This document shows, one piece after another, positions 9,685 through 37,357 of a DNA stretch of 64,000 nucleotides; within the stretch, counting starts at the first letter, position 1; each line of letters opens with the position of its first letter. A program made the position numbers and the translations under genes. The notes under the pieces were generated by a model. That model searched no databases, was not told the DNA's origin, and saw nothing but the letters and a program-made list of their open reading frames with translations. Origin of the DNA: Escherichia coli. Lineage in GTDB: Bacteria; Pseudomonadota; Gammaproteobacteria; Enterobacterales; Enterobacteriaceae. The stretch lies in the NCBI RefSeq assembly GCF_003991155.1, contig NZ_CP031293.1. One strand, 5' to 3'.

Positions 9685-10403
9685 CCGAGTTACCAATCGA
9701 CGAAAACACGCCACGTATTTTGATCGTGGAAGATGAACCGAAGCTGGGGCAGTTGCTTATTGATTATCTGCGTGCTGCGAGCTATGCGCCGACGCTTATC
9801 AGCCACGGCGATCAGGTACTGCCATATGTGCGCCAGACACCACCGGATCTGATCCTGTTGGATCTGATGCTCCCTGGCACCGATGGCCTGACGTTGTGTC
9901 GGGAGATTCGTCGTTTTTCTGACATTCCGATCGTGATGGTGACAGCAAAAATCGAAGAGATCGACCGCCTGCTCGGGCTGGAGATTGGCGCAGATGATTA
10001 TATCTGTAAGCCGTACAGCCCACGGGAAGTGGTAGCGCGCGTCAAAACCATTTTGCGCCGTTGCAAACCGCAGCGCGAGTTGCAGCAACAGGATGCTGAA
10101 AGCCCGTTGATTATCGACGAAGGTCGTTTTCAGGCTTCATGGCGCGGAAAAATGCTTGACCTGACGCCTGCGGAATTTCGTCTGCTGAAAACGCTCTCTC
10201 ATGAACCAGGAAAAGTGTTCTCCCGCGAGCAATTGCTCAATCATCTTTATGACGACTACCGCGTAGTAACCGACCGCACCATCGACAGCCACATTAAAAA
10301 CCTGCGCCGCAAGCTGGAATCTCTCGACGCCGAACAGTCATTTATCCGCGCCGTTTACGGCGTCGGTTACCGCTGGGAAGCCGACGCCTGCCGCATCGTT
10401 TAA
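9681..10403 (+). CDS. baeR: BaeR OmpR-family response regulator (240 aa)
   Basis: Receiver domain (ILIVEDE..DLMLPG) plus a winged-helix OmpR C-terminus. 4-nt overlap with baeS. Confidence 0.95.
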
Positions 10404-29491: not shown

Positions 29492-29625
29492 AGTTTGCTC
29501 CTGCCATAACGTGAAGAAGCAATGACCTGGTGGTCCGTGACTTCCCTACGCTGGCATTATCCAGATCAGGTGATACGGGTATTTCTCAGCCTTCACGCAG
29601 AAGGGCACCCCGAGTCGTTTGGTTG
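29492..29625 (-). promoter_or_regulatory. thiM TPP (thi-box) riboswitch: aptamer plus SD-sequestering expression platform
   Basis: The minus strand reads ..AACCAAACGACUCGGGGUGCCCUUCUGCGUGAAGGCUGAGAAAUACCCGUAUCACCUGAUCUGGAUAAUGCCAGCGUAGGGAAGUCACGGACCACCAGGUCAUUGCUUCUUCACGUUAUGGCAGGAGCAAACUAUG. This is the well-studied E. coli thiM riboswitch sequence. Confidence 0.93.
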
Positions 29626-30499: not shown

Positions 30500-31219
30500 T
30501 TAAAATGGAATGTCAAAATCGTCCTCTTCTGTCTCAGGTATCGTGTATATATGTTCTCTTCCTGTAAATTCAGAAACCACTATTGAAATTAGCCTGTATG
30601 CCTCTATTTTATCGCCCTGCGTTTCAGCTAAAGCCCACTCAAGGGCTGCTTCTGTTGGCTGTCCATTCGGTTTGCAAATAGTGACACCGCCCCAAGGAAG
30701 CTCTGTTTTTTCCTGCTGAATAGAGCGTGTTGTTTCTAGTGTTTTTTTATCTTCCGTAGGGGGAAGCTGTTCAGGAACAGCTTTAACAGTAGATACTTGC
30801 TCTGTCTGTGGCTTTTCTGCATTTACAGAGGCTTTCGCTTCTCTTGGTGCTGTAATATGTGCATCTGTAAAGGGTAATGCTTTATAGAGTGATGTTTGAC
30901 CGTGGCGTGCCTCTACAGAAAGAACTCCCATATCAACAAACATATTTATAATATTGCGTACCTGACGATCACTAACCATTCCAATATTAGCTAATGTTTT
31001 TTGAGTAGCGTAACATTCTTGCCCTTGTTCATTGAATCCAGCTATATAGCTATAGATTTCAACGGCTGGCAGTGTAGCGGTGTATTCATTACCAGATGGT
31101 GAGTACCATTTTTTAAACATCTTCAACCATTGCTCAACAACTACATATTTTTGTTTACCATCTTTCTGATTTAGACATTTGGCTTTCGCTTCGGCAATTG
31201 TTTTGATATTTTTGATCAT
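30500..31219 (-). CDS. wHTH replication-initiator-like protein with a Pro/Glu/Lys/Thr-rich (likely disordered) linker and an SSB-tip-like C-terminus (239 aa)
   Basis: HTH segment ATQKTLANIGMVSDRQVRNIINMFVDMGVL, typical of phage/plasmid O/DnaD-like N-terminal wHTH proteins. The C-terminus is ...ETEEDDFDIPF. Confidence 0.6.
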   Translation of the reverse strand: MIKNIKTIAEAKAKCLNQKDGKQKYVVVEQWLKMFKKWYSPSGNEYTATLPAVEIYSYIAGFNEQGQECYATQKTLANIGMVSDRQVRNIINMFVDMGVLSVEARHGQTSLYKALPFTDAHITAPREAKASVNAEKPQTEQVSTVKAVPEQLPPTEDKKTLETTRSIQQEKTELPWGGVTICKPNGQPTEAALEWALAETQGDKIEAYRLISIVVSEFTGREHIYTIPETEEDDFDIPF

Positions 31220-31343
31220 TTAGTTCCTCCTTTGTAAGGACTGTAATTAGTAGTTCATTAACAAGTTTTGGAATTGATTTCCCTTCTGCCTTTGCGCGAT
31301 TTAACAACGCGTTATAAGTTGCAGAGTCAAAATTAATATTCAT
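31155..31343 (-). CDS. Ribbon-helix-helix (Arc/CopG-like) small protein (62 aa)
   Basis: MNINFDSATYNALLNRAKAEGKSIPKLVNELL is an RHH-like pattern. GGAGAGGAGAA RBS lies 7 nt upstream of ATG 31343. The 3' end overlaps the next gene by 65 nt, so the exact extent is uncertain. Confidence 0.5.
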   Translation of the reverse strand: MNINFDSATYNALLNRAKAEGKSIPKLVNELLITVLTKEELNDQKYQNNCRSESQMSKSERW

Positions 31344-31365
31344 TTGGTTTTCTCCTCTCCTGTTA

Positions 31366-31548
31366 TTATTCTTTCTCTGCTTCTGCCTTACGCAGTTCAT
31401 CAATAATCTTGAGTGCATCGTCAAAGCATTTTTCACGCTCTGGATAACCTCGACTCCTTGCCATATTACGATTCATTACTACTTGATGTCGTGTTAACTC
31501 ACCTTTTTTAAATGCCTCTACGACGTGTTCCGGTATAAACCATTTCAT
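31366..31548 (-). CDS. Hypothetical small protein (60 aa), first gene of the leftward island operon
   Basis: AAGGAG RBS 7 nt upstream. Candidate promoter TTGACA-N17-AATAAT on the minus strand at 31687-31659. Confidence 0.5.
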   Translation of the reverse strand: MKWFIPEHVVEAFKKGELTRHQVVMNRNMARSRGYPEREKCFDDALKIIDELRKAEAEKE

Positions 31549-33312
31549 AAAAAACTCCTTATTCAGTTAAAAGAAAAACACCTTGCAAGCCTGACGGCTT
31601 CAAAGTGCATTGATTTTGATTATTTAGAGAAGAATGTTTTTCTGTCCCTCTAGTACCTATTATTACATATAAATAAACATTTGTCAATATCTTTTCATAA
31701 AAAATCAGAACCTTTTCATGCACTTACATTTTTTCTTAGCGATTCGTGCTCTCCTGTGTAGTGCTATTCTTCATTACCAGCTAAAACGCTCTAAAACGCG
31801 TTCTAACGAAGTTTTGATAAAAGCAATACATTCTCTTATGTAATGGCTGTTTAGCTCGCCAGAGGCTTATTTAAGTGGCTTATTTTGTATTTGTTAGATG
31901 ATGATAGATATAAAACAGAGAGTTCTTAGATTAGTTACTTTATAAAACGCTCTGTAAAGCCCTGTAGTGAGTTTATATATGTAGGCAAAGCGGTTTCCAT
32001 TCTCTACCCTGCTTAATGCTGTTAGAGAAGCATTTAGACCCCTTATTTTTAATTACCTAAAGTATCCTCTATACATCTCTGTTATGAAACACCTCTGAAT
32101 CCTTCATAAAACACATTATGACGCAAAGAACACTTTTCTAAGGTGATTCCCTTCCTGAACTCTGTTTCTTGCGTCAGAGAGCTACACAGAGAGCTTATAA
32201 AGCTATTATTAATAATAAAGTAGATAAAGTAAGTAAGATAAGTAAGAAGATTAACTAAGATAGATAAGATTAATAAGATCAGAATTCTCTTTCGGTGTCG
32301 CCTCTGGCTTTTCCACCGAAAACAATTACACGACTACAGAATGTAGGAAGTGAAATTGTATTGAGGCTTAGTGAAATTACACGAGGAAAGCAGAGTGTAA
32401 TTGAGCTTTAGCCGCTCTCTCTTCGAGTAATTACACAACTACAGAGAATAACAGAGTTATTAAATGTAGGAGGGTAATTAAGAGTTAGAGAGAGTTAACA
32501 CGTAAGCAATCAGATGATTGGTTAGGTGATTACTCTTACTGCGCACAGCGCAATAGTATTCCTTCGTGGGCGTTACCGCCAACGATAGTTACACGAAGAA
32601 AGTAACGCTTTGCTTTCGGTGTGAGCGGAACGGGCCAGCCACAAAGCCCGAAAGGTAGCGGAGTAAGGCTGCTTGCCAGAGAGTGGAGCTAACGCCGGAA
32701 GGCAAAAGATCATATATATAGTATAAAGAATATTATTTAATTATAGTATTGGTGGAACTCATTACCTAAGGTAAACCGGAGACCACTTCCAACGGTTAGG
32801 CAACCACTTCCAATTGTGTTATTTCCCCTTTTACCCTAAGTAAATTTTAGCCTTTCGTTACATCCATTTATCACATAGCACTTACCCTGTGTAAATCATA
32901 GAATAATGCTCTCTATTCCCTGTGTAATTCCATACTAAAAAATTCAATGAAAAGTAGTTTAAAAGTGCAATGTTAGCTTTCTTCACTTTTACATCACTTT
33001 CGCTGCGCCTTGTGTAATGCGGCTTACAGAGCACTATCAGAAATTATTGATCAAAAATCAACCTATTATTTGTCGAACAAGTTTTCTTTAATGCAACAAA
33101 AATTATTTTTTCAAAATAAACACACAATTTAATAGCTTGCTAATTTTACCAAAATGTAACTACATGATTCTCATGCAAGAAGTGTAGTGATAAGGCAGGC
33201 TAAATCACCACACTAAAAAACTTCGAATTTCGTAGTGAAAAAAGTACTTTACACACCTAATCAACACGCCCAATAATCACTACACACAAATCAATACAGA
33301 AGAAAAAAGAAG
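31549..33312. other. 1.76-kb ORF-free, motif-dense region: candidate replication origin and/or structured ncRNA locus
   Basis: No ORF of 60 aa or more in any frame. ATTACAC/GTGTAAT heptamers occur in both orientations (32325, 32376, 32430 / 32395, 32922, 33012, and variant 32889). There is a C-poor TAAG-rich tract (32211-32280), a GC-richer hairpin-rich core (about 32520-32700) and a pure AT stretch (32711-32750). Confidence 0.5.
33182..33213. promoter_or_regulatory. Candidate recombinase binding (res-like) site: GTGTAGTGAT-N12-ATCACCACAC
   Basis: 10-bp inverted half-sites (1 mismatch) lie 100 bp upstream of the serine recombinase gene. Further half-site copies are at 33230 (+) and 33276 (-). 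Confidence 0.4.
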
Positions 33313-33864
33313 ATGGCTAATATTGGATACATTAGGGTATCGACTGTGCAACAAAACACAGACCGTCAATTAGCAGGAGTAACTCTTGATAAAGTCTTTG
33401 AAGATAAAGCGTCAGGCAAGAACACTCAGCGCCCACAGTTTGAGGCAATGATGAACTATGTGCGGGAGGGTGACGTGTTACACGTCCATAGTATTGATCG
33501 CCTTTGTCGTAATACAGCCGACCTTCTGGCAACTGTAGAGCAATTAACAAAGCGCGGCGTGTCTGTGCATTTCCATAAAGAAGACTTTAAGACAGGAAAG
33601 AACTCTCCCGCAGGGAATATGATGCTCACAGTTCTTGCAGCAGTGGCACAAATGGAACGTGAAATGATGCTTGAGCGTCAACGTGAAGGGATCGCCGCAG
33701 CCAAGGCCGCTGGACGTATAGCAAAACGTGGTAATGGAAAAGCAATTGATCGAGCGGGAATTGCTGCCGCTCTCGCGAATGGTGGCTCAATTCGGAGCGT
33801 AGCAAAAGATTTCAGTGTCAGCACGCAGACGGTGCAACGTATCAAGAAAGAGCAGGTGGCGTAA
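33313..33864 (+). CDS. Small serine recombinase (resolvase/invertase family, 183 aa)
   Basis: MANIGYIRVSTVQQNTDRQ catalytic-Ser motif, the D..HVHSIDRL.R motif, and a C-terminal HTH (SIRSVAKDFSVSTQTVQRI). Confidence 0.88.
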   Translation: MANIGYIRVSTVQQNTDRQLAGVTLDKVFEDKASGKNTQRPQFEAMMNYVREGDVLHVHSIDRLCRNTADLLATVEQLTKRGVSVHFHKEDFKTGKNSPAGNMMLTVLAAVAQMEREMMLERQREGIAAAKAAGRIAKRGNGKAIDRAGIAAALANGGSIRSVAKDFSVSTQTVQRIKKEQVA

Positions 33865-34030
33865 TGCCTCCTTGATATTTGACAGGGACGGTCGGCAAAA
33901 ATCGGGGCTTGCTGATCTCAGCGTTGAGCGGTTCTTGCAATGGTGCCTAGGTGCTCGCTTGTATTCCCCTTCGATAATCACCACTAAGCCACTTATTGCC
34001 TTGTGGAGTGGCCCGAAAATTACTGATATC

Positions 34031-34495
34031 TTATTGATTCAGTCGATCCCATTTAACCGCAGATACAATTCCCCAATTACCACTAGCATTAGGCCTACGC
34101 CACTTCGCGGTTTCCATTCCACGAAGGTATTCGAGAGCTTCATTGAACGAACTGAAACGTTTCTGGGCTGATTTTTCCCCTACTCTAAACGAACCATCGC
34201 GAGTACTTGCCAATCCTGGATGAAAACACGACCCATCTGCAGCATAAGGAACAAGTACCTCCTGATCATCAGGTTTCCTTGAATCAGAAGCCAGTAACTG
34301 CCAAGGCTCAATACGCAAAGCGTCAGCCAGAACCTCAATTGCATCAAGAGATGCATTAGAGCAACCACGCTCAATTCGACTCATATAACTACGTGCAAAA
34401 CCACACCGATCTGCAAAGGCCTCTTGGCTTAAGCCAATAGCTATACGGAACTCTTTTACTCGTTGTCCAAAAAGGTATCTCAGATTCTTTCGCAT
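34031..34495 (-). CDS. XRE-family HTH regulator with an uncharacterised C-terminal domain (154 aa from MRKNL)
   Basis: HTH_3 pattern (LFGQRVKEFRIAIGLSQEAFADRCGFARSYMSRIERGCSNASLDAIEVLADAL), then about 85 aa with no recognised family. Confidence 0.75.
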   Translation of the reverse strand: MRKNLRYLFGQRVKEFRIAIGLSQEAFADRCGFARSYMSRIERGCSNASLDAIEVLADALRIEPWQLLASDSRKPDDQEVLVPYAADGSCFHPGLASTRDGSFRVGEKSAQKRFSSFNEALEYLRGMETAKWRRPNASGNWGIVSAVKWDRLNQ

Positions 34496-34605
34496 GGCAC
34501 AAAGATGCAATTTGACGCACCAATTAACCACGCACTAATCGTGACATTTTGAATCAATCATGTATTATTAGCATCACCATCCATTTGACACACCAAGGGA
34601 GACAA

Positions 34606-35030: not shown

Positions 35031-35756
35031 CTATTTATTAACAGGTAGTAATGTCAGATCGCCATAATGGGCTTGTCTATGGCAATTAGGACATAATGCA
35101 ATAGCATTTTCCACAGAGTCCTCCCCCCCCTTTGAAAGCCACTCAATATGATGAACTTCTAGAAATGGAGTACCATCTTCCTTTAGAAAAGGAGCATCTC
35201 GCTTACAATATTGACATTTTCCATTTGCACTCAAAAGAACTTCAGCAACTACATATGGGCTTCGTTTATAAACTCGTGTTGTTACTTCGATTAGTTCCGG
35301 GATTTTACTTTCTGTCGCTAAAATTTGCTTTCGTTCCACTGAAGATAATTTTGCAGCCGTCTCAACAGCTTCTTCGAAAACCGATTTTACTTGACGATAA
35401 CGCCACATCCCTTCTAAATCCTGGTATAATTCCCAAATACCGTGCACAGATGGTTGATAGATTTCAAAAATATTTCCACGCTTGAACAATCGGTCATACT
35501 TATGATGCCGATGAGTTACATCATCAGTTCGTCGGGCAGTTTTGTTGAAACTCCAGTAGCTCCGCTTACAATTAACTGTATTAGCAATTAAATTGAGCCA
35601 AGTATTATCTTTATAAGATGGAAATAGCTTTCTAAGATAATCATCTACCTGCTTAGCCGTTGCAGCCCCACCAAACTGATTAGCAATTATCTGTATGGTA
35701 ATAGCTCTTATCGGTTGATCGCCATACTTGTATTTTTTGCCTAAATTTTTAACCAT
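35031..35756 (-). CDS. HNH nuclease with a roughly 160-aa uncharacterised N-terminal domain (241 aa); candidate type IV-like restriction/defence nuclease
   Basis: C-terminal HNH: CQYC...FLEVHHIEWLSKGGEDSVENAIALCPNCHRQAH (McrA-like beta-beta-alpha-Me with CxxC...CxxC). The N-terminal region is not recognisable. Confidence 0.75.
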   Translation of the reverse strand: MVKNLGKKYKYGDQPIRAITIQIIANQFGGAATAKQVDDYLRKLFPSYKDNTWLNLIANTVNCKRSYWSFNKTARRTDDVTHRHHKYDRLFKRGNIFEIYQPSVHGIWELYQDLEGMWRYRQVKSVFEEAVETAAKLSSVERKQILATESKIPELIEVTTRVYKRSPYVVAEVLLSANGKCQYCKRDAPFLKEDGTPFLEVHHIEWLSKGGEDSVENAIALCPNCHRQAHYGDLTLLPVNK

Positions 35757-37275: not shown

Positions 37276-37357
37276 CCCTACGCTGGCATTATCCAGATCA
37301 GGTGATACGGGTATTTCTCAGCCTTCACGCAGAAGGGCACCCCGAGTCGTTTGGTTG
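37276..37357 (-). promoter_or_regulatory. Second (orphan) copy of the thiM TPP aptamer, on the native promoter side of the island
   Basis: 100% identical to 29544-29625. It lacks the ..AAGUCACGG.. continuation and the expression platform, and is followed 83 nt later by the integrase start codon. Confidence 0.85.

Follow-up and report, generated by a model that had tools for sequence, protein, structure and literature searches.

A probable control and replication-origin region in the longest non-coding stretch of a phage-satellite-like island of Escherichia coli

What is the role of 1,764 bp without a gene in the middle of a small genomic island? The stretch in question, positions 31549-33312 of a 64-kb window of the E. 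coli chromosome (the window being the whole of the analyzed DNA, 64,000 nucleotides, in which CyaR, OrzO-P and the thiMD genes are present), lies between a leftward operon that encodes an initiator-like protein, here called Rep, and a gene for a small serine recombinase. An earlier sequence-only reading of the locus had offered two explanations, an iteron-type origin of replication and a large structured RNA. Comparison with related islands leads us to consider it reasonably probable that the stretch holds the cis-acting control sequences and the replication origin of a ~7.7-kb integrative, phage-satellite-like island. On comparative and architectural evidence, the origin itself probably consists of an AT-rich tract at 32703-32752 and three iterons at 32753-32818.

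The starting claim of the sequence-only reading, that no open reading frame (ORF) of at least 60 aa is present at 31549-33312, held when six frames were checked, as did the claim that this is the longest non-coding gap in the window, where the next-longest gap is 324 bp and thus five-fold shorter. That reading had also named the case that would count against it, decay of a former gene or genes, for which we found nothing in favor and which we regard as barely credible. Relatives have 1.3-3.0 kb without annotated coding sequence (CDS) at the equivalent position, and a CDS is found in none of them. Inside the stretch lie six ORFs of 40-54 aa, none with a Pfam or PHROG match; in nearly all aligned homologues, frameshifting indels disrupt five of these. 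The sixth (31718-31843, plus strand) is free of frameshifting indels in most homologues, though several (L006, L008, L005, L023) carry additional in-frame stops or frameshifts. Single-nucleotide indels are, moreover, frequent in the most conserved part of the stretch. By these comparisons the stretch is genuinely non-coding, and its CDS-free state is a family trait.

The whole stretch is present in 107 of 5,426 complete E. coli genomes and part of it in 714 (~13%), and a search of viral and metagenome collections with a conserved DNA motif yielded 65 further loci. Our comparisons cover 44-58 related loci depending on the test; these loci are akin, so that counts among them are not counts of independent events. 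The segment 31898-32744 is lineage-specific, the window holding version A, whereas versions B, C and D are mostly unalignable replacements of ~850 bp. The proposed origin involves three features:

32703-32752, no strand assigned: AT-rich tract, 43 of 50 positions A/T, the most AT-rich 50-mer of the region and a putative DNA-unwinding element.
32753-32818, plus strand: three imperfect 23-bp iterons of the GGAAMYCAYTTCC type (GGAACTCATTACC, GGAGACCACTTCC and GCAACCACTTCC), found as three matches at no more than one mismatch.
30500-31219, minus strand: gene for the Rep-like initiator, 239 aa, with an N-terminal winged helix-turn-helix (wHTH) and a C-terminus ending ...EEDDFDIPF.

We clustered the first 120 residues of Rep into six types and, for 44 distinct Rep/origin combinations, counted the direct repeats that surround the tract richest in A/T. 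In every case the repeats adjoin that tract; relatives have two to six cleaner copies there, and an equivalent tract separates the iterons from a hairpin-rich module in every lineage. Rep cluster 0, the window's own type, occurs with GGAAMYCAYTTCC units at a 23-bp period in 12 of 13 distinct loci, cluster 2 with TTCTGTKRGGGT in all ten of its loci and cluster 3 with TTGATAGGGGTA in all seven; across clusters 0-3 the N-terminal cluster fits the repeat type in 34 of 39 distinct loci, and the match holds with left block A or B alike. We placed the origin at 32703-32818 because the Rep N-terminal type co-varies with these iterons and not with the ATTACAC words or the GC-rich core of the stretch. 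The architecture described by the sequence-only reading is therefore retained in outline (wHTH initiator-like gene, AT-rich tract with repeats at its flanks, and words in opposite orientation on either side), while its choice of iterons is not: it had taken the ATTACAC words for the initiator's sites, and the repeats that track the Rep domain are instead the 23-bp units. The 'pure A/T 40-mer' that it placed at 32711-32750 is really 36 of 40 A/T, with one C and three G.

Several observations weigh against this origin. Rep cluster 1 is paired with ATGACCTACCCC in only five of nine loci. The Rep assignment depends on matches that are weak and N-terminal only, to Pfam HTH_36 at threshold (1.5e-5) and to PHROG replication-initiation, O-like and DnaD-like families (4e-7 to 7e-4, that is, E-values of 1e-4 to 1e-7). 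There is no DnaA box in 31549-33312, neither TTATCCACA within one mismatch nor TTWTNCACA. The window has just three degenerate iterons, compared with five clean copies in L031, and its copy may be a weak or decaying origin. About 1 kb (31898-32702) lies outside what the origin model explains, and the polar words described below, which are present in versions A, B and C with unrelated surroundings, are absent in L075 (lineage D). Finally, some relatives hold two or three iteron families in one non-coding region (L002 10200-10900; L003 10170-10800), L003 having six copies of the ATGACCTACCCC type and four of a GGAA..TTCC type; such mixtures look like fossils of past origin swaps.

The layout that we propose runs, from left to right, through the promoter, leader and control block of the p60-RHH-Rep operon, a spacer and a TAAG-rich tract, the 415-nt module, the AT-rich tract, the Rep-specific iterons, the conserved block on the right, which carries polar words and an IHF site, and the promoter of the serine recombinase. 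Comparison among relatives indicates that the N-terminal domain of Rep recognizes the iterons at 32753-32818; binding of Rep would open the adjacent AT-rich tract at 32703-32752. Host replication proteins could then be recruited through the conserved C-terminal part of Rep. C-terminal parts have been reassorted among the N-terminal types and finish with D(F/S)D(I/L)PF, the Rep-like proteins of the family (30500-30526 here; homologues in L002-L005) terminating in ...DFDIPF or ...YDS(I/L)PF. This ending resembles the E. coli SSB tail (DFDDDIPF), which recruits PriA, primase, chi and others, and the look-alike may be a route to recruit host replication proteins without DnaA boxes. The polar words and the self-folding module would serve as origin-accessory elements shared across the lineages, binding or forming something irrespective of Rep type, with p60, a host factor, or priming- or primosome-type single-strand structures as conjectured partners.

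If the ATTACAC words are not the sites of Rep, what are they? The copies that had been reported are all present, ATTACAC on the plus strand at 32325, 32376 and 32430 and GTGTAAT at 32395, 32922 and 33012, and the variant at 32889 reads GTGTAAA. Six of the window's nine copies fall within the 1.76-kb stretch, against ~0.2 expected. Elements with five or six differing initiator types all have these same words, which for this reason cannot be Rep specificity sites. Across relatives they resolve into a polar word, YTGTGYAAT (extended consensus ttcYYT-GTGYAAT-kc), that clusters solely in the non-coding region. In 51 distinct regions, 153 copies lie on the minus strand and 29 on the plus strand to the left of the AT-rich tract, and to its right the counts are 21 and 327, respectively; the word thus reads 5' to 3' away from the origin on both sides. 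We infer that the word-bearing strand would be the lagging-strand template of the outgoing fork. The right-hand words stand in a block whose parts are:

32848-33089, plus strand: right-hand block, conserved in all lineages and also kept in L003, L005 and L009, which have no recombinase gene; it contains the 23-mer CGTTACATCCATTTATCACATAG (32855-32877) and the words CCCTGTGTAAA (32885), CCCTGTGTAAT (32918) and CCTTGTGTAAT (33008).
33056-33068, within the right-hand block: a single IHF consensus site, AATCAACCTATTA.

Within this block the 23-mer and 32885-33089 are the parts conserved across all lineages, and TGATCA is also present. The word shares TGTAAYK with the Ter core but is without GTTGTAAC, and a Tus/Ter function was rejected.

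The obvious candidate for a word-binding protein is p60, the sole protein conserved well enough for that task:

31366-31548, minus strand: p60 gene, first of the leftward operon, abutting the non-coding region and encoding the family's most conserved protein.

Its predicted fold is uninformative: the AlphaFold2 model (predicted local distance difference test score 89.6) is a three-helix bundle with no fold match in the PDB at E < 1, and a sequence-profile search of the PDB was also empty. Homologues of p60 were found in Escherichia only among 5.8 billion proteins. A scan of GTDB species genomes with the p60 alignment found four loci, two in Escherichia and two on contigs labelled as a Bacillota metagenome-assembled genome, the latter being suspected contamination.

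The left-hand words lie in the element that the origin model leaves unaccounted for:

32288-32702, plus strand: hairpin-rich module, 415 nt, closed by a long-range inverted repeat with arms at 32288-32308 and 32675-32702; it contains ATTACAC at 32325, 32376 and 32430, GTGTAAT at 32395, the GC-rich core and two motifs retained in other lineages, CTGCGCACAGCGCAA (32539) and TTCGGTGTGAGCGG (about 32614).

The sequence-only reading had pointed to a GC-rich core with short hairpins and suggested that it could be a structured RNA. Its description was accurate, in that 32520-32700 has 53.6% G+C against 35.5% for the region, and the hairpins CGTGGGCG-TTAC-CGCCAACG (32565) and GTTAC-N9-GTAAC (32588) were both found. 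Folding of the whole module gave a minimum free energy of -156 kcal/mol on the plus strand, with a z-score of -7.4 against shuffled sequences, in a structure made of a 21-bp closing helix, a second long-range helix and a series of hairpins, some of whose stems are formed by left-hand ATTACAC/GTGTAAT words. No unusual folding was seen elsewhere in the stretch. The minus strand reached -132.5 kcal/mol (z -5.9), and because both strands fold well, strong folding does not discriminate between an RNA and inverted repeats at the level of DNA.

It is nevertheless possible, if somewhat unlikely, that the plus strand of the module encodes a large structured non-coding RNA of a new class, transcribed towards the origin and acting as a regulator, pre-primer or partner of p60, a proposal that is compatible with the origin reading. 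The diversity of the module is the lowest of the locus within lineage A (nucleotide diversity 0.00-0.02 versus 0.28 at third codon positions of p60), a value biased downwards by our choosing version A. Variable positions in that lineage avoid predicted pairs, with 14 of 282 paired positions variable compared with 22 of 133 unpaired ones (odds ratio 0.26, p = 2.5e-4), and the closing helix contains four G.U pairs, all one-sided changes in it retaining pairing through G.U or U.A. All four lineage versions are far more foldable than their shuffles, B, C and D at z -5 to -8.7 on the plus strand. The plus strand is the more stable one in lineage A (by 23 kcal/mol) and in D (by 36), but in lineages B and C the minus strand folds equally well or better, as would fit inverted repeats at the DNA level. 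Lineages A and B both have inverted repeats of 21-25 bp around ~370 bp; in version B the closing inverted repeat measures 24 bp and is unrelated in sequence.

Covariation gave a mixed answer. Two-sided compensatory changes number zero within lineage A; between A and B, 14 pairs have changed on both sides, but in an alignment fitted to the model and across a single split. Two covariance models (R1 and R2), built to test for structure shared between lineages, gained 5-8 bits on lineage B over sequence-only counterparts, whereas on lineage D the structure model scored 38.1 bits compared with 41.4 for sequence only and lineage C gave no match; we do not use these models as support. Whole hairpin units have been lost or duplicated between relatives, which also counts against an RNA, and just two motifs, mutually complementary, are conserved across versions: CTGCGCACAGCG and CG(U/G)UGUGAGCGG. 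The cross-lineage motif TTGTGAGCGG (GGTGTGAGCGG in the window, 32616-32625; L004 about 9867-9876) is identical to the left half-site of lacO1; its likeness to the lac operator is probably a coincidence.

External evidence for an RNA was sought in several ways. The Rfam scan proposed by the sequence-only reading found no family: Rfam 15 gave no match in the region at gathering thresholds when the whole window was scanned, and only chance matches at E <= 10 in 31000-34000. Neither a consensus sigma-70 promoter nor an intrinsic terminator brackets the module or its counterparts in three lineages, and antisense targets within the island amount to five matches of 10-12 nt, with ~6 expected. The p60 protein has a match to the NCBIfam model NF058537 ('RNA-binding regulator'), seen in 18 of 25 homologues and far below threshold at 17 bits against a cut-off of 100. 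Vibrio PLE satellites, in turn, make an abundant transcript between inverted repeats elsewhere in the element (PMC7567579, PMC8263062). The proposal of a structured RNA thus keeps the folding and the pair-sparing substitutions on its side, with Rfam, the promoter and terminator searches and within-lineage compensation on the other. On the sequence comparisons as a whole we conclude that the module is a real, conserved and strongly self-complementary accessory element beside the putative origin. A more specific and decidedly speculative proposal is that it represents a new class of large structured RNA or single-strand DNA structure, specific to an undescribed Escherichia satellite family, which would work with p60 and the outward YTGTGYAAT arrays to start or license replication without DnaA, the SSB-tail look-alike of Rep bringing in host primosome proteins.

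Could the module or the right-hand block instead be a site for transfer? Most partial matches to the stretch belong to ~12-kb elements at tRNA-Thr (thrW) that share the p60-Rep operon. Those examined (L004 1082-5068 and 5668-6663, and likewise L002, L003 and L005) encode capsid-like (343 aa), tape-measure-like (613 aa) and Dit-like (225 aa) proteins and neither terminase nor portal; as no terminase is encoded, such relatives must be packaged by a helper. The thrW elements appear to be an undescribed satellite-type family of E. coli, and full-text literature searches for the family, the 'Rbp RNA-binding regulator' and the conserved DNA motifs returned nothing specific. They also have a second CDS-free gap of ~1 kb, and the thrW element of strain EH2252 (L003) is a truncated member of the family. 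A packaging (pac/cos) or oriT-like site for a helper phage or plasmid would agree with the virion-like proteins, with conservation of the right-hand block in all lineages whatever the Rep type, and with its IHF site and TGATCA; hairpin-rich regions are also typical of oriT and pac sites.

Searches of mobile-element collections leave such a site improbable. Among 50,697 phage records the whole region had no match at E <= 1e-5, and at E <= 10 the module and right-hand block gave chance-level matches only; a cos/pac mimic of a helper phage detectable by sequence was accordingly rejected. One of these matches, between 32641-32678 and the 3' end of T7 gene 10B just upstream of the T-phi terminator (33 of 38 positions, E = 2), was judged to be chance since the identical 15-mer occurs in only three of 34 lineage-A variants. 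The plasmid collection contained two matching records, both from E. coli, a 4.9-Mb record and a 166-kb conjugative plasmid that matches the recombinase-linked segment only. Neither a relaxase nor a TerS gene is present in the island, and mirrored word polarity on the two sides of the AT-rich tract is not expected of a single packaging site that works in one direction.

The adjoining recombinase suggests another role:

33313-33864, plus strand: small serine recombinase, 183 aa, resolvase/invertase family (Pfam Resolvase 1.1e-38; PHROG DNA invertase 2.2e-61).

A recombinase of this family next to 21-25-bp inverted repeats around ~370 bp (in A and B) could mean that the region is its invertible or resolvable segment, with the GTGTAAT words or the long inverted repeat as crossover sites. 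The constant arrangement of the locus largely refutes inversion: in 58 loci the region has a single orientation relative to p60 and is never flipped, and L003, L005 and L009 lack the recombinase gene while retaining the words, the module and the rest of the region. Only ~33089-33312 (query positions 1541-1763) travels with the gene, being present only where it follows. We regard this role of the region as very improbable.

Around the putative origin, the remaining parts of the stretch are:

31659-31687, minus strand: sigma-70-type promoter of the p60-RHH-Rep operon, TTGACA-17-AATAAT with an upstream TG (11 of 12 match); its leader is 31549-31658.
31688-31897, no strand assigned: control block upstream of the p60 operon, conserved in all lineages, with the direct repeats TAAAACGCTCT (31782; its second copy further right, at 31943) and GGCTTATTT (31864, 31877) and with CCTGTGTA (31753).
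31898-32210, no strand assigned: spacer specific to lineage A, containing a single long hairpin (arms 32119-32132 and 32163-32176; minus-strand z about -3.5).
32211-32280, plus strand: C-poor TAAG/GATAAG tract, which varies in length among relatives and is indel-rich in alignments.
33090-33312, plus strand: promoter (TTTACA-18-AATAAT at 33248-33277) and leader of the recombinase, a segment that travels with the gene; L004 has the same promoter.

The promoters of both flanking operons are at conserved positions, a TTGACA promoter standing in L004 and L075 at the site equivalent to that of the p60 operon. The left end, 31549-31897 (query positions 1-349), is 76-95% identical in every lineage, and the block at 31688-31897 may serve as an operator. 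Both repeat pairs had been noticed before; their two copies each were found again at slightly different places, the TAAAACGCTCT copies starting one base further on, at 31782 and 31943, and the second GGCTTATTT copy at 31877 and not 31879. The C-poor tract is as described, with two C in 70 nt and seven occurrences of TAAG. Which version of the left block is present goes with the left-arm genes and in this way with overall lineage.

The island itself lies between the two copies of a perfect 82-bp direct repeat (29544-29625 and 37276-37357), ~7.7 kb apart, and both copies score as a TPP riboswitch in Rfam. It is integrated in the thiM TPP riboswitch, of which 82 bp are duplicated exactly. In strain PEC389 (L075) the same insertion site is taken by another island, which encodes a TIR-domain protein and carries an IS1 insertion. 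The gene order begins with an HTH_73 protein, followed by the leftward operon (81-aa protein, the 239-aa wHTH Rep-like protein, a 63-aa protein resembling the ribbon-helix-helix (RHH) family and the 60-aa p60), the ORF-free stretch, the 183-aa serine recombinase, an XRE regulator, a 115-aa protein, an HNH enzyme resembling type IV restriction enzymes and, last, a 445-aa tyrosine integrase. The genes at 34031-34498 and 35031-35756, both on the minus strand, are likely defense cargo; the HNH protein matches the PADLOC model of a type IV methyl-directed restriction enzyme (1.9e-23), and the XRE protein a restriction 'control protein' model (5.7e-17).

How does the proposed origin region compare with known systems? 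Iteron-dependent theta origins (lambda O/ori, pSC101, RK2 oriV) likewise combine a wHTH initiator with repeats spaced about two helical turns apart that abut an AT-rich tract, with IHF nearby, and in RK2 oriV a G+C-rich segment stands beside the AT-rich tract. Unlike those origins, the present one has no DnaA boxes, its initiator gene lies 1.5 kb from the iterons and is transcribed away from them, and it is flanked by the 415-nt self-folding module and by mirror-image word arrays. The module is similar to the ColE1 RNA II pre-primer and to ssi/PAS signals in being a highly structured element of several hundred nucleotides that ends where DNA synthesis or unwinding would begin; ColE1, however, needs no Rep or iterons, and here there is no RNAI/RNAII family match and no promoter was found.

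Satellite P4 (ori/crr, CI RNA immunity) is also an E. coli satellite, and its initiator-binding words occur in two separated clusters. In P4 a small RNA processed from the leader pairs with two repeated targets; here CTTTCGGTGT occurs twice, ~320 nt apart (32289-32298 and 32611-32620), with CACCGAAA (32314-32321) between the copies and complementary to both, so that alternative pairings reminiscent of the P4 seqA/seqB/seqC are permitted. In contrast to P4, the island has no alpha primase-helicase, no sequence similarity and no Rfam C4 or CI match, and transcription of the module is hypothetical.

In its organization the region is, by our comparison, closest to PLE. The PLE of Vibrio cholerae also has a CDS-free region (~3 kb), which adjoins genes clustered on the minus strand and holds the origin in its distal quarter, and in both systems the N-terminal DNA-binding domain of the initiator is swapped together with the iterons while the C-terminal part is conserved; for PLE, RepA_N and the origin in the ~3-kb non-coding region have been shown by experiment to be an exchangeable module (PMC8263062, PMC7567579). 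The two systems have no detectable sequence relationship, and they differ in that the initiator here is of the wHTH/HTH_36, O-like type instead of RepA_N and the host is Escherichia. The island further differs from PLE in having a tyrosine recombinase integrase and a small serine recombinase, in that its relatives encode their own capsid- and tail-like proteins, and in its polar YTGTGYAAT words and inverted-repeat-closed module, for which PLE has no described counterpart.

The region as read here would define the replicon of a family of small islands present in ~13% of complete E. coli genomes (714 of 5,426), a family that includes the long-known but uncharacterized thrW 'cryptic prophage' of Shiga-toxin-producing strains. 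These islands carry defense cargo, in the present case the type IV restriction-like HNH enzyme. The analysis yields predicted Rep binding sites that are directly testable. Two features depart from the textbook picture of an origin, the word arrays in mirror image and the self-folding module next to the unwinding tract. Among lineages, the initiator domain is exchanged together with its iterons as a cassette; in PLE, phage nucleases directed against the satellite origin drive such exchange, and its occurrence here suggests that the same arms race acts in E. coli.

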